Positions 60 to 63,594 are shown, counted from the first letter of the stretch. The stretch is 64,000 nucleotides of DNA from a virus (IMGVR_UViG_3300038443_000660:130082-194081), one strand, 5' to 3'. The notes: generated by a model not told the origin, from the sequence alone. Program-made: numbers and translations.

Positions 60-134
60 TGGCACCGGAGACAGGAATCGAACCTGCTTAAATACGGGTT
101 TGGAAGCCGCTGTTTGCCACTAAACTTCACCGGT
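60..134 (-). tRNA. tRNA-Trp(CCA), with non-canonical pairs
   Basis: Reverse complement folds as a cloverleaf: ACCGGTG/CTCCGGT acceptor, A1-U72, G73, encoded CCA, TTCGATT T-loop, loop TTCCAAA giving anticodon CCA; C31:C39 and U6:U67 mismatches. Confidence 0.75.
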
Positions 135-5418: not shown

Positions 5419-6104
5419 TATTTCGCCTTCTTAGCCTTCTTTTCCTTGGCTGGTTCATCAGCCAACCCGGCCAGCTTCATTCCCTCATTCAGTGCATCCT
5501 TTAGCGAAGCGTCATAAGTTGGCTTCACTGCCAGCGTACCGACAATTTCCAGCAACGTCTTTTGCAGTCCCCGTTCAAAGACCTTATCGACGGTTTCTGC
5601 CGAAACTACCGTCTTGACCTGTCGTTCCTGCTTAAGAATGAAATCTTCCGGCAACCCCTTGACCTTTTCAAGCGCCTTTGAAACAGTTTCCAGAAGTTGC
5701 GAATCACCGAAATATGCAGGATTGATGACATAACAATCTGCCTTAGTTTCGACTTCCTCTACAGGGATTTCCAGTCGAGTAAGAACGTCGATTTCTTCGG
5801 GAGTCAGCGGCGAAGCCGACGAGCGAGTCCGAAGTTCACAGGAAGCGGAAGCAAGATCGCCATCAACACCCCGAAAATTTTCGGGACGCTTCTTAATCTG
5901 GTTTCCAATACCAATGAAGGTATTGGCCATTTCTTCCTTGACCTTTTCGTCAAGAGTCGCCCGAATGGCCGTAAACCCCTTGACGATAGCATCAACTACC
6001 GCAAGGTTGGCTAGACCGGGGATGTTAATTCGTTCGGCGGTGCTTTTCTTCTTGGCTGGCGGTGCGACCGCTTCAATCTTCTTGGCTTTATCAAAAATCG
6101 ACAT
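5418..6104 (-). CDS. hypothetical early protein with Lys-rich termini
   Basis: 228-aa ORF with GGAG RBS and its own sigma70-type promoter. Confidence 0.75.
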   Translation of the reverse strand: MSIFDKAKKIEAVAPPAKKKSTAERINIPGLANLAVVDAIVKGFTAIRATLDEKVKEEMANTFIGIGNQIKKRPENFRGVDGDLASASCELRTRSSASPLTPEEIDVLTRLEIPVEEVETKADCYVINPAYFGDSQLLETVSKALEKVKGLPEDFILKQERQVKTVVSAETVDKVFERGLQKTLLEIVGTLAVKPTYDASLKDALNEGMKLAGLADEPAKEKKAKKAK

Positions 6105-6134: not shown

Positions 6135-6163
6135 AATATAAAAGAAAAATGTAGAATGTCAAG
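6135..6163 (-). promoter_or_regulatory. sigma70-type promoter
   Basis: CTTGAC-N17-TATATT. Confidence 0.75.
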
Positions 6164-59393: not shown

Positions 59394-60482
59394 ATGTCGA
59401 GTTTCAAAAATTATCTTTCCGAGTCCAAAGGCAGTTCCTATAATTGGAATGACTATCGCTCCATCGCCCAATTCACTTTGGATGAAAAAGAAAAGGCTCG
59501 ATATATTAAGGCCATTGATGCCTTCGAAAAGGGTATCGAGAATAAGCATATTTGGAACGCTGATTTCAAGGATTTGTATTCCTATGATTTCTCCCGTAAT
59601 TATGAACGGATAATCGACAAATTGAAAAATGACGTGTACTTCTCCATGTCCGAAGAAGACAAGCAGAAATACAACGATGTTTACTGGATTAACACGACTC
59701 CGGTTGGAATCAAGAAGTCCTTCAAAGAAGTGACTCCACACAAGAATGTTTTCCCGGCGCTCTATGATGCACTGGAAAAGATGCAAACCTTTCCAGATAT
59801 GTTGAAAGAACTTAAGGGATATATCGAAAAGGGACGTAAGGTTTCCGATGAAAAGAAGGAAGCCAAGGTAGCGTTTCAGGCTATTGTTACCGGTTCGCAG
59901 GCACAGCGAATCAAGGACGTTCTCCAAAAATCGGTTGATGAACTTCGTCCACAATATGAACAGATGTTCATTAAACAGGATTTGGATAGGGTGCAAAAAG
60001 CCTATGCCCAAAAGGATGCAATCATTGAAAAAGAGAAGCTAACTACCGCAAAATATCGGTGGAAAAATTATCTTTCTCGTCCAGTTCCCATTTTGGGACA
60101 TATTATCAATCAGAATGGTGAACTACGAGACGATTGGAAGGATTATGTAATTAAGCAAGCGAAAGAAGATGTTAAGTTTATCTTGGAAGGATTTGTAGCC
60201 AAGAATGTCAAGAAGCTGGCTACGATTGTCGATAAGAAGCGTAATCTTGCTGATATCAAGTTGGTCAAGAATAATATCAACCAAGGAAATTTGGATAACG
60301 AACTTTCGTTCACGTTCACTGATGGAGCAAAATTTATCGTCTATTCCAAAACGATCTACAAATATTCCAGCCGTGGGTTGCTATTCACGCAATATCCGAC
60401 TCGTTTCACGAACGTGATTATGTCGAATGGGCAGCGCATGGCAGAGCCTTCCGAAGAAAGAATGAACAAGGTGTTTCATTAA
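59394..60482 (+). CDS. hypothetical protein, putative internal head protein
   Basis: 362 aa; N-terminus MSSFKNYLSE. Confidence 0.7.
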   Translation: MSSFKNYLSESKGSSYNWNDYRSIAQFTLDEKEKARYIKAIDAFEKGIENKHIWNADFKDLYSYDFSRNYERIIDKLKNDVYFSMSEEDKQKYNDVYWINTTPVGIKKSFKEVTPHKNVFPALYDALEKMQTFPDMLKELKGYIEKGRKVSDEKKEAKVAFQAIVTGSQAQRIKDVLQKSVDELRPQYEQMFIKQDLDRVQKAYAQKDAIIEKEKLTTAKYRWKNYLSRPVPILGHIINQNGELRDDWKDYVIKQAKEDVKFILEGFVAKNVKKLATIVDKKRNLADIKLVKNNINQGNLDNELSFTFTDGAKFIVYSKTIYKYSSRGLLFTQYPTRFTNVIMSNGQRMAEPSEERMNKVFH

Positions 60483-60485
60483 GGG

Positions 60486-60514
60486 TTGACAGGGAGAATC
60501 GATTCAAATATAGA
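60486..60514 (+). promoter_or_regulatory. sigma70-type promoter
   Basis: TTGACA-N17-TATAGA. Confidence 0.65.
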
Positions 60515-60520
60515 GTAGTA

Positions 60521-60627
60521 GTCCTTACACACGCCCCCACCCCCCCTCACTGTGTGTAGGGATATTGAGTGTTCAGTGTTGGCTTCCCTATCCCCTTCCT
60601 TAGAAGCTGATGCTGAACACTCTTTTT
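60521..60627 (+). ncRNA. predicted small RNA with two C-rich-loop hairpins
   Basis: 11-bp stem 60522-32/60552-62; 20-bp stem 60567-86/60603-22 with 4 G-U pairs; U-tract 60623-27; promoter immediately upstream. Confidence 0.65.
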
Positions 60628-60639
60628 AATTTTAAGCAC

Positions 60640-62055
60640 ATGTCTCATAAAATTAATATTCCTTCCAAAGAAGAACTTGAAAAAAAATATATAGAATTGA
60701 TTTCTATATCGGCGGTGGCTCGTTATTTCAATACATCTAACCCAACTGTTAGAAAGTGGTTGATAAACTACGGTATCGAACGTAAATCACATGCGGTTGC
60801 ATCGGCAGGCGTAAATCGAATAGAAAAACCAAAAACAAGATTATCCGACGAAACGTATAAAAAGCTGAACAGCTACGACTACCTGTATGATGCTCGTATC
60901 AATCGCAAGCTTTCCTATGAGAATATCGGGAAGGAACTAGGTTGTTCTGAAATACCTGTCAAAGCAGCCTGTATAGCGCTTGACATTCCAAAAGTTCGAC
61001 ATAATGAATCTCAACCCATGGTTATGGTAAAACTGCGTGATAAGACGTGGTTGACCGAAAAGCATATTAATCAGCACGTTACTCTCCAAGATATTGCTAA
61101 TGAAATAGGCTCATCCAAAGCAACAGTATCTGTATGGATGCGGTATCATGGCATAATCACAAATAACCCAAACTCGTATGATAGAGTGGGATGCTCGTCC
61201 AAAGAATGTGACGAACTTTCTGATTTTATTAAATCATTGGGATTTGATATAGAAACAAACAACAGAACGATATTGAATGGTTTTGAACTAGATATCGTGG
61301 TCCCCTCAAAGAAAATAGCTTTTGAATACAATGGTGTGTTTTCTCATCTGTTTAGACCAGAAGAAAGTAAATTTTCTACAAGGAAGGATGCGAAATATCA
61401 CTTATTCAAAACCGAAGAATCAAAACGTCATGGATATGATTTAATTCATATTTTTTCGGATGATTGGAAGTACAGAAACGAAATTTGTAAATCGATCATC
61501 CGATCTAAACTTGGTGTTTCTGATAGATTATTTGGCAGAAAGTGTTTAATAAAACGTGTTTCGTCAAAAGCTAAATCAGAATTTCTAAATTTAAACCATA
61601 TTCAGGGAAACGACAAATCCACTATATATTATGGATTGATATATGAAGATGTGCTAGTGGCCGTAATGACATTCTGTAAATCAAGATATAATAAACATTT
61701 TGATTGGGAGTTGAGTAGATTTGCATCAAAATGTGGAATTACAATCGTTGGTGGCTTTTCAAAATTGTTAAAGCGATTTGAAAGTGAATTTTCAGGCTCA
61801 ATTATAAGTTATGCAGATAGGTCACGTTCCAATGGAAATGTATACAGAAATAACGGTTTCACACTAATTAAAACAAACCCTCCCGGTTATTCATATGTGA
61901 ATTTAAATATGTCTGAACAGCGCTTTCATAGAGCCGCATTCATGAAAAAACGGATTGCTCCCAATGATACAAGAACCGAACGTGAAATAATGCGAGAGAG
62001 GGGATACCACCAAATTTTTGATTGTGGTTCTCTTGCATTTGGCAAAAATATCTGA
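60640..62055 (+). mobile_element. Hef-like homing endonuclease: HTH repeats + PD-(D/E)XK domain + GNAT/Mom-like domain
   Basis: Three HTH-like repeats; ELDI.VP..KIAFEYNG..SH; NHIQG, WELSRFA, SYAD....G.VY...GF; ATG 60640 preferred because 60610 lies inside the hairpin. Confidence 0.75.
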
Positions 62056-62117
62056 TGCATTTGCTAGGAAGGGGGAATCTTGATGCTTCGTTCAGGTAAA
62101 CGTAAGCAGTTTTAGTA

Positions 62118-62150
62118 AAAAGAAAGGGGCCATATTGGCCCCTTTCTTTT
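62118..62150. terminator. bidirectional terminator
   Basis: AAAAGAAAGGGGCCA-TAT-TGGCCCCTTTCTTTT between convergent genes. Confidence 0.88.
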
Positions 62151-62166
62151 GGATAATCTATGTAGA

Positions 62167-63552
62167 TTACATAAGGTTCTTGATTACAAAACCACGGTAG
62201 TACATGTTCTTCTTAGAAGAAGCAATCGCACCATCAGCCGCTGTAGTAGCGAATGGGTGAGCGACCATGCCGTACCTAGTCTTAAATCCAATCTTTGGTT
62301 GGAATGAGTCCTGACCAACGGCACGATACATTTGCAGCGGAACGTATGGGCAGTAGAAGATACCAGCATCGAATGGTGAAGTACCCTTATAACCAACTAC
62401 GGCAAGGTGATTACCGGCAGATGAATTTGCATAAGGATCGATATAAACCTTGTACTGGCCGAACAGAGTACCAGCAAAAGTGTTACCAGTGTCGTCAACT
62501 TCAAGTGTTTCTCTTTCCATAGCAGACTTGTAGTCAAGGTAGCCAGCCATACGGAAGGCAGATGCTACGTCTGATGAACAGAGAACGAAGTTACCCTTAC
62601 CACGACGAGTAGCCTTGGCAATTTGGTTAGCTTCACGTTCAATCTGGAACAGAAGACCCTTAAACTTTTCAACCATCCAGCGACCGTTTGAGTCAACGTC
62701 AAGGTCGAATGAACCAGCAGCAGCGGTATTCTCTTGTGCGCCGATAGTAGCGGTCTTATAGATTGAACGAATAACTTCACGGTTGATTTCAGCAAGAATT
62801 TCACCAGACAGAATGTTAGACAGTTCTGTTTCAGCATCCAGACCATGAACGTTCTTCAAGTCCTGTGCCAATTCGTGTGAATATTCAGCCTTCAAAGCAC
62901 GAGATACAGCTTCTACAGCTACTTTCTCGATGCTGAATGACATTTCGTTGAAAGCGTTACCGGGAGCATCACCAAGTGCTTCGGCAGCGTTACGTGTCAT
63001 ACCCTTTGCATATGTATAGGTAGTGTTAGCACCAGTAATGAGCGTTGAAGGGTCAGAACCGGCCTGTGCGCCACCAACAGCAGCCAATGATGTAGCGTTA
63101 GCAGTACCATTAGCAGCCTGTGAAGATGAAGACCAATGAGTAAGAGCCTCATTGTAGAAAGCTTCTGTACCATCCTGCTTACCATAACGTGAACGGAGAG
63201 CAAATACCAAGCCAGTAGGCATTGACATAGGCTGAACACCGCAAAGGTCATAAGCAATAAGGTTAGGCATTGAACGGCGGATCAAGGAAATCAATACAGG
63301 ATCGTATGTATCGATAGAGCCATCACCAGCAGTTGAGGATGAATTACCCATAGAGTTAGTAGGGGCAGCTTCAAGCAAGTAAGTCAGAGACTGTGTACGG
63401 TCACGAGAAATGGTTTCCATGTTTGACTTAAGCTGATTTTCCAGAAGCACAGCAGTTGTAGTTCTGCGATGAGCATCACGAATCTTTGGAAAATCTTCAT
63501 GGTCAAGGATTGGTTCCCATTTTTCCATTAATGTATTGATATCATATTCCAT
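62167..63552 (-). CDS. gp23: major capsid protein
   Basis: DPVLISLIRRSMPNLIAYD.CGVQPM..PTGL.FA, SRALKAEYS.ELAQDLK.VHGLDAE, FYCPYVPLQM. Confidence 0.97.
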   Translation of the reverse strand: MEYDINTLMEKWEPILDHEDFPKIRDAHRRTTTAVLLENQLKSNMETISRDRTQSLTYLLEAAPTNSMGNSSSTAGDGSIDTYDPVLISLIRRSMPNLIAYDLCGVQPMSMPTGLVFALRSRYGKQDGTEAFYNEALTHWSSSSQAANGTANATSLAAVGGAQAGSDPSTLITGANTTYTYAKGMTRNAAEALGDAPGNAFNEMSFSIEKVAVEAVSRALKAEYSHELAQDLKNVHGLDAETELSNILSGEILAEINREVIRSIYKTATIGAQENTAAAGSFDLDVDSNGRWMVEKFKGLLFQIEREANQIAKATRRGKGNFVLCSSDVASAFRMAGYLDYKSAMERETLEVDDTGNTFAGTLFGQYKVYIDPYANSSAGNHLAVVGYKGTSPFDAGIFYCPYVPLQMYRAVGQDSFQPKIGFKTRYGMVAHPFATTAADGAIASSKKNMYYRGFVIKNLM

Positions 63553-63586: not shown

Positions 63587-63594
63587 TATTTATA
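63587..63594 (-). promoter_or_regulatory. T4-type late promoter for gp23
   Basis: TATAAATA. Confidence 0.75.

Follow-up and report, generated by a model that had tools for sequence, protein, structure and literature searches.

A conserved RNA element of two C-rich hairpins ahead of a homing endonuclease gene in a T4-like phage: a candidate small RNA and probable terminator

Described systems and the phage locus

To our knowledge, very few regulatory RNAs of lytic phages have been characterised, and we know of none from alphaproteobacterial T4-like phages. Small RNAs (sRNAs) of the DapZ and MicL types are derived from 3' UTRs and end in intrinsic terminators, with or without a promoter of their own. 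In Alphaproteobacteria, sRNAs that combine two adjacent hairpins with C-rich anti-Shine-Dalgarno (anti-SD) loops are established (PMC4615179). In the cuckoo (alpha-r14) sRNAs, 2-4 hairpins are directly adjacent; their stems vary, their loops (9-27 nt) contain CCUCCUCCC, and the modules are 24-50 nt long. Members are CcsR1-4 (RSs0680a-d) from Rhodobacter and NfeR1/SmelC397 from Sinorhizobium (PMC4615179). For the C-run loops of Firmicutes sRNAs, pairing with G-rich ribosome binding sites has been suggested (PMC4615179, PMC8216469).

Terminators and hairpins are also a known restraint on homing endonuclease genes (PMC2988022). The segD gene of phage T4 is in antisense orientation and has intrinsic terminators on both sides, and hardly any transcript is assumed to be made from it. 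Internal terminators are found in mobE and segF, and in seg43(25) a hairpin directly precedes the ribosome binding site (RBS). The RBS is sequestered by a hairpin in I-TevI, I-TevII, I-TevIII, segB and mobE of Aeh1. Terminators of T4 and E. coli have a loop of ~3-8 nt and a GC-rich stem (PMC2988022).

Here, we analyze a stretch of viral DNA of 64,000 nt (IMGVR_UViG_3300038443_000660:130082-194081, referred to as the window), in which a small RNA with two hairpins had been predicted. The window is part of a virus record that is complete (242,456 bp, 38% GC), and Logan run SRR35147169 contains this locus as well. The phage is large, uncultured and a deep-branching member of the T4-like phages. 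Its major capsid protein gp23 (gene at 62167-63552, minus strand; PF07068, E 5e-143) has just 60-63% identity to the best cultured relatives (an Ochrobactrum phage and cyanophages), and no cultured relative of its DNA polymerase exceeds 40% identity. The genome has dozens of near-identical strong early promoters (TTGACATTCT, ~10 nt, TATTATATAAAT); examples on the minus strand are found at window positions 6162, 48735 and 49248. At positions 63-134 (minus strand), a tRNA was called by Rfam (43.6 bits); ARAGORN called no tRNA in the whole window.

The element is flanked by two genes of the plus strand, which are 157 nt apart. The upstream gene, p362 (59394-60482), is an ORF without a known family; it closes a co-directional operon in which an Acb1-like 2H phosphoesterase is also encoded. 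Searches with p362 against Pfam and PHROG gave no match, no RNA-binding fold is recognisable, and there are just 12 homologues among 5.8 billion proteins. In distant relatives, the p362 homologue is followed by an ORF of 60-69 aa and an ordinary terminator, and the element is not found there; its assignment as the terminator belonging to p362 itself was rejected on this ground. The downstream gene (60640-62055) codes for a Hef-like free-standing homing endonuclease of 471 aa (phrog_3339 'homing endonuclease', E 1.2e-93). Its homologues are annotated as Hef-like, and the protein start (MSHKI) is conserved. The gp23 gene, which comes next, is oriented towards both of them, the endonuclease gene and the element.

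The host of the phage is probably an alphaproteobacterium, as hinted by the relatives of an outer-membrane beta-barrel protein (OMP) that the phage encodes (26822-27562, plus strand; PF13505). GTDB species genomes contain 13 relatives of this protein, at 26-33% identity. All classified ones belong to the Alphaproteobacteria, mostly to the Hyphomicrobiales, and include Xanthobacteraceae, Afipia, Bradyrhizobium and Hyphomicrobiaceae. The cuckoo/alpha-r14 sRNAs are regarded as the closest functional analogue for this reason.

Fold and conservation of the element

The element (60521-60627, plus strand) is ~107 nt long and consists of two hairpins that are 3 nt apart, without a multiloop, followed by a U5 tract. 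The hairpins, the loops and the U-tract were all found where the original prediction had placed them. Hairpin 1 (60521-60563, 43 nt) has a 13-bp stem according to RNAfold, with two terminal G-U pairs, and carries loop 1 (CCCCCACCCCCCCUCAC, 60534-60550), in which 13 of the 17 nt are C. It had been described as an 11-bp stem with a 19-nt loop. That helix is correct, and RNAfold extends it by the closing G-U pairs. Hairpin 2 (60567-60622, 56 nt) has a 20-bp stem with four G-U pairs and carries loop 2 (CCUAUCCCCUUCCUUA, 60587-60602, 16 nt). The U5 tract (60623-60627), then AAUUUU, is directly 3' of hairpin 2 and is invariant in the relatives described below. All of these features are on the plus strand.

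The fold of the plus strand has -46.1 kcal/mol (z -8.85), and none of 200 shuffled sequences is as stable. The minus strand folds far less stably (-34.1 kcal/mol, z -2.9), and the structure is thus specific to plus-strand RNA, as had been proposed from the G-U pairs of the second stem. In the ensemble, the unpaired fraction exceeds 90% for both loops. The original prediction had called the C-runs striking for this genome, and this is borne out: no second C7 run exists in the 242,456 bp, and runs of C6 or longer number three in total. A scan of the whole genome for hairpins with C-rich loops (uninterrupted stems of at least 9 bp, loops of 9-25 nt) retrieved no second hairpin that combines a stem of at least 13 bp with a loop of at least 50% C. 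The element also contains a small ORF (25 codons from GUG 60552). This was dismissed as non-coding because the relatives show mainly non-synonymous changes, which are accounted for by the stems.

Two ENA contigs from related metagenomic phages (L084 and L085), which were found by protein search, keep the element. In L084, p362 has 76% amino acid identity; in L085, the downstream gene has 86%. The conserved block begins with GGGTTGACA and ends with the U-tract. Just upstream of it is a 14-nt indel, and just downstream is a divergent spacer with a 3-nt indel. The spacing between the -35 hexamer (see below) and hairpin 1 is fixed, while that between the -35 hexamer and the stop codon of p362 varies. 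The element is 82-84% identical to that of the window, while third codon positions in the genes on either side reach 56-60%. The next intergenic region has 72% identity with 25 gaps.

Across the three sequences, 99 of 99 helix cells are paired (RNAalifold -48.76). Seven pairs vary and all of them are still paired, four in hairpin 1, among them a double change from C-G to U-A, and three in hairpin 2. By our own count, all eight stem substitutions are compatible transitions. The chance of this is estimated at 0.02 when only transitions are considered and at 0.0007 when transversions are allowed. Covariation in related phages had been proposed as a check of the prediction. The changes in L084 and L085 preserve the structure, with the limit that a shuffle control for covariation is non-significant (173/500), since there are just three sequences, two of which are nearly identical. 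Support is real but thin.

The loops vary more than the stems, yet they are constrained. Loop 1 reads CCCCCCGCCCCCUCAAA in the relatives (one C shorter in L084) and retains the pattern of C-run, purine, C-run and UCA, with differing run lengths (C5-A-C7, C6-G-C5 and C5-G-C5). Loop 2 reads GUCUCCCCCUUCCUUA in the relatives. Its last 11 nt (CCCCUUCCUUA) are invariant, while its first 5 nt all differ. The probability that 11 nt stay invariant by chance is estimated at ~0.003 for neutral divergence. We conclude that the structure formed by these ~107 nt of plus-strand RNA is real and under selection, and that it ends in a probable intrinsic terminator.

Promoter-like boxes, termination and the endonuclease gene

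A -35-like box (TTGACA, 60486-60491, plus strand) that matches the consensus at 6/6 positions is located 3 nt past the stop codon of p362. It is followed, after a 17-nt spacer, by a -10-like box (TATAGA, 60509-60514, plus strand), which predicts a transcription start at ~60520-60521. The two boxes of the promoter that had been proposed are thus in place, but the second is weak: it agrees with TATAAT at 4/6 positions and is devoid of the conserved final T. A -10 box of this quality is found at 31% of the TTGAC[AT] sites in the genome, and a consensus promoter scan did not report the TATAGA site. The site is unlike the strong early promoters of the phage. Both hexamers are invariant in L084 and L085, and 5 of the 17 spacer bases differ. 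Compared to the early-promoter consensus of the phage, the putative promoter of the element is weak. Transcripts of the p362 operon may equally well give rise to the RNA as their 3' end. The element is similar to the DapZ and MicL types in being positioned right after a stop codon, in sharing its terminator with the upstream operon and in having a possible promoter, but it is not homologous to them. Some cuckoo members also arise from the 3' end of the transcript of an upstream gene.

Hairpin 2 has the features of an intrinsic terminator, a 20-bp stem (-28.0 kcal/mol for the hairpin alone) followed by UUUUUAAUUUU, and these are kept in the relatives. Atypical for a terminator are its 16-nt loop and the four G-U pairs. 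A terminator scan did not call hairpin 2 because the loop is too large. The other terminators of the phage have short GC-rich stems and loops of 4-5 nt. A GC-rich bidirectional terminator (GGGGCC AUAUU GGCCCC, 62117-62147) is found between the endonuclease gene and gp23. By the logic of T4-like terminators, hairpin 2 and the U5 tract would very plausibly halt most transcription ahead of the endonuclease gene. An attenuator that limits the endonuclease had been considered as the alternative to a small RNA. Control of the endonuclease is at least equally well supported for hairpin 2. However, no antiterminator fold competes with its 20-bp stem, which argues for constitutive insulation rather than regulated attenuation.

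The ATG of the endonuclease gene (60640) is 13 nt 3' of the U-tract. This gene has neither an SD sequence nor a late promoter of its own, the nearest late promoter (TATAAATA, 63587-63594) being that of gp23. Homologues of the endonuclease (44-58% identity) were compared in very different T4-like phages (cyanophage B23, L088, L169-L172 and L173), with genes at L083 2222-3703, L088 3001-4422, L169 2501-3997, L172 2501-3985 and L173 2501-3880. All those examined are encoded directly behind gp23 and convergent to it, and the gene on the other side varies. This distribution points to a lineage of endonucleases that homes to the 3' flank of gp23. The adjacency of endonuclease gene and element is attributed to such homing, not to shared ancestry or co-evolution. 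We also considered the element as part of an endonuclease cassette, but the regions upstream of the homologues in B23, L088, L169, L172 and L173 (28-196 nt) do not contain it. Several homologues carry a late-promoter-like box and an SD sequence (L169 and L172). In L173, which like the window has a co-directional upstream gene, an ordinary GC-rich terminator precedes the endonuclease gene.

The main rival to an sRNA is that the element acts only in cis. Hairpin 2 and U5 would then terminate the p362 operon ahead of gp23 transcription, hairpin 1 would stabilise the transcript or cause pausing, and there would be no function in trans. After the endonuclease gene had been inserted behind gp23, the terminator would, incidentally or usefully, keep it nearly untranscribed. 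The position of the endonuclease lineage, which is always behind gp23, is consistent with this, as are the ordinary terminator in L173, the terminators that flank segD in T4 together with the known restraint by hairpins (PMC2988022), and an endonuclease gene that, unlike homologues, is devoid of late promoter and SD sequence. The likeness to T4 is that a very stable hairpin or terminator directly precedes a free-standing gene that is antisense to late genes, and that expression of the endonuclease would hinge on read-through. There are also differences from the T4-type hairpins. The hairpin of the element includes neither the RBS nor the start codon of the endonuclease gene, nor an internal late promoter; its loops are large, conserved and C-rich; a promoter-like site precedes it; and endonuclease homologues in other phages do without the element. 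A function restricted to cis leaves several features unaccounted for: a loop size of 16-17 nt compared to 4-5 nt, the 11 invariant bases, the C-run pattern that is kept, and the conserved TTGACA-N17-TATAGA at a fixed spacing to hairpin 1. In the absence of an antiterminator fold, its variant as a regulated attenuator is impossible. We consider a cis-only function possible but rather doubtful. If it applies, the locus would be a clear natural case of a genome that confines a promoterless selfish endonuclease gene.

The 3' arm of hairpin 2 contains an invariant AUG (60610-60612, plus strand) that is in frame with the endonuclease (ORF 60610-62055). In the window, it precedes the endonuclease ATG by 30 nt, without a stop codon in between, and in L084 and L085 by 33 nt. 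In these two, the AUG opens a uORF of 10 codons, and its TAA abuts the endonuclease ATG. The AUG might be a real ribosome entry site that is hidden by hairpin 2, as with the T4 hairpins that hide start sites; it would then continue in frame into the endonuclease in the window and start a 10-codon uORF with a TAA-ATG junction in the relatives. The invariance of the AUG, the two distances that are both multiples of three, and the RBS-sequestering hairpins described for I-TevI, I-TevII, I-TevIII, segB and Aeh1 mobE (PMC2988022) speak for translational control. However, no SD sequence precedes AUG 60610, the hairpin has no internal late promoter that would free it, a conserved frame is expected by chance in one of three cases, and the AUG is also fixed by stem pairing. 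As hairpin 1 and the C-rich loops are left unaccounted for as well, translational control is very unlikely to be the function of the element.

C-rich loops, possible partners and RNA families

Both loops had been described as anti-SD-like. They are indeed exposed, conserved and C-rich, but the anti-SD core CCUCC is present in neither of them, and loop 2 resembles the 16S tail by virtue of a 6-mer (UCCUUA). Judged from the loop sequences, the label 'anti-Shine-Dalgarno' is just loosely true. The UUCCUUA of loop 2 is complementary to UAAGGAA, and AAGGA and AGGAA are the commonest enriched 5-mers ahead of gene starts in the phage (39 and 36 of 368, ~5-6-fold). Duplex energies were computed over all translation start regions of the phage and compared to composition-matched shuffles of the loops. 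They are -4.72 for loop 2 (shuffled loops -4.98 +/- 0.30) and -3.92 for loop 1 (shuffled loops -3.72 +/- 0.45). Tuning of the loops to the RBSs of the phage itself was thus rejected, as pairing is no better than for shuffled loops. A 9-nt match of loop 2 to AGGAAGGGGG in the 3' UTR of the endonuclease gene (~62066-62075) is not conserved in L085 and was attributed to chance. The lack of a target signal is in line with a terminator that has no function in trans.

According to the original prediction, an anti-SD sRNA could spare the phage genes, which were taken to be SD-poor. This part was not upheld. AGGAG is 15-fold enriched ahead of phage gene starts, and an SD-like 4-mer precedes 35% of the crudely called genes, compared to 11% of controls. 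The phage is not clearly SD-poor, and the proposed sparing is therefore not shown.

Our preferred explanation, which we favour only tentatively, is a terminator-ended sRNA of ~107 nt, the C-rich loops of which act in trans while the endonuclease gene is insulated. Transcription would start at the weak sigma-70-type promoter after the stop codon of p362, or result from read-through of the p362 operon, or both. It would pass two very stable hairpins and stop at hairpin 2 and the U-tract. The two C-rich loops of the released RNA might then bind G-rich, SD-like stretches of host or phage mRNAs, a design that parallels sRNAs of the cuckoo/CcsR/NfeR1 and RsaE/RNAIII types. As a by-product, the endonuclease gene, devoid of promoter and SD sequence, would be left to rare read-through. 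Conserved C-rich loops of 16-17 nt are unnecessary for termination, given that the usual terminators of the phage have loops of 4-5 nt. The hairpin with the most extreme C-tract of the genome sits exactly at the predicted 5' end. Together with the large loops and the fixed spacing to the -35 box, we take this as the mark of an sRNA that has its loops as working parts.

In favour of the sRNA we count the z-score of the fold, the same fold in three phages, the boundaries of the conserved block, the constraint on the loops, the uniqueness in the genome, the probable host and the complementarity of UUCCUUA to enriched 5-mers ahead of gene starts. Counted against it are the weak -10 box, loops without CCUCC or CCUCCUCCC, the lack of an Rfam match, pairing at the level of shuffled loops, the availability of just three sequences and the missing homologues in the nearest complete relatives and in bacterial genomes (see below). 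Of the trans-acting sRNA that had been predicted, the extent is supported, as the -35 box and the U-tract precisely delimit the conserved block, which would fit an independent transcription unit of ~107 nt; the proposed action of the loops and the strength of the promoter are less well founded.

The C-rich loops might instead bind a protein. Such a decoy would titrate or recruit a protein that prefers C-rich single strands, candidates being Rho, a chaperone similar to Hfq, ProQ or CcaF1, and p362. The rut sites of Rho are C-rich and G-poor. In loop 1, composition is better kept than the exact sequence, and the varying lengths of the C-runs fit recognition by composition better than precise base-pairing; the missing signal for a pairing target agrees with this. 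Relatives have few runs of C6 or longer, and most of these are in loops of intergenic hairpins, one of them (in G001) right after the operon of the p362 homologue. However, these hairpins are non-homologous to the element according to a covariance model, and G002 does not have the one of G001 at the corresponding position. For a Rho hexamer, a loop of 16-17 nt is short. With p362 having no recognisable RNA-binding fold and the protein partner being putative, we consider a decoy improbable.

A trans-acting sRNA, which we continue to prefer, should be compared to known families. A cmscan of 60400-60700 against all 4227 families of Rfam 15 did not assign the element to any family at E values up to 10; the sole match in this region is a chance one to snoR97 on the minus strand. 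Thus, a search of Rfam, which had been recommended with the prediction, was negative. Rfam matches with gathering score across the window are restricted to one tRNA. Sub-threshold Rfam matches to SraG, sraA and DapZ were discarded because they reflect just the terminator hairpin at 62117-62147 (DapZ match at 62117-62205) and not the element. A covariance model (R1) was made from the three sequences of the element. R1 recovers just the element from the phage genome, where blastn-short did not detect paralogues either. Neither a DNA search nor R1 identified a homologue in the nearest complete relatives (G001-G004). R1 was also applied to 151 genomes that belong to the same bacterial order as G005, a genome of the Alphaproteobacteria in which a relative of the phage OMP is encoded. 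There was no match at E values up to 0.1; a single chance match with E 9.7 is seen in 5 genomes. An origin from the host was rejected based on the search of this order. In exact-word scans of sequence collections, the 17-mer of loop 1 matched one GC-rich viral contig by chance, and an 18-mer from loop 2 and its stem had 0 viral and 8 chance metagenome matches.

The parallel to the cuckoo and AbcR sRNAs, which was part of the original prediction, is reasonable given the probable host. As in cuckoo RNAs, the hairpins are directly adjacent, the stems are variable, the large single-stranded loops are C-rich and the 3' hairpin is terminator-like; the probable host belongs to the same class. Hairpin 1 (43 nt, 17-nt loop) is within the 24-50 nt of a cuckoo module, while hairpin 2 (56 nt, 16-nt loop) exceeds it. 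On the other hand, neither loop has CCUCCUCCC, be it in the window or in the relatives, and the Rfam models do not match, which rules out membership in cuckoo/ar14 or AbcR. A further difference is that a lytic T4-like phage encodes the element, which was not found in the 151 genomes searched. With the UCCC loops of RNAIII and the C-rich regions of RsaE/RoxS from Firmicutes, the element shares exposed C-runs in hairpin loops (PMC4615179, PMC8216469). This is a likeness of design only, as sequence, organism and architecture are unrelated.

It is tempting to speculate that a T4-like lytic phage of an alphaproteobacterium makes a cuckoo-like sRNA that silences G-rich or SD-led host mRNAs, or titrates a factor that binds C-rich RNA (Rho or a chaperone), with the same terminator starving the endonuclease. 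Such an RNA would have evolved in the phage as an analogue, not a homologue, of a class of host sRNAs. This scenario as a whole is unlikely. If the element acts in trans, the phage would have independently reached the design of adjacent hairpins with C-rich loops that its probable hosts use in translational control, and loop swaps would be a simple handle on host takeover at the level of translation.

Other hairpins were seen in relatives of the phage. L087 has a near-perfect palindromic hairpin with 17 bp (5432-5490, corresponding to G001:C1 ~186,522-186,580), with a minus-strand loop (AUGGGCCUCCCUCCCCCCC) that is close to CCUCCUCCC. It comes right after the operon of the p362 homologue, with a bidirectional terminator on one side and a convergent OMP gene on the other. 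It looks like an inserted small palindromic element, since G002 lacks it at the same place. Hairpins with C-run loops are also found 1.9-2.4 kb behind gp23, on the convergent strand, in G001 (C1:151511-151557, minus strand) and G002 (C1:118287-118322, plus strand). They follow a shared gene of 178-183 aa, the stop codon of which overlaps TTGAC. Their sequences are conserved neither between each other nor with respect to the element in the window. Despite the similar theme and the position behind gp23, they were not used as evidence because they are non-homologous and their structure is weak (z-scores of -2.1 and -1.8).

The same two genomes share a non-coding block of ~105 nt that is conserved amid a diverged intergenic region (G001:C1:151061-151165, minus strand; G002:C1:118685-118789, plus strand). 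It reads …CTGAAACGATAGG…CACGGTC.ATTGGTT…GCCCGGCCACC…GG.CGGGCA and may be another structured RNA.
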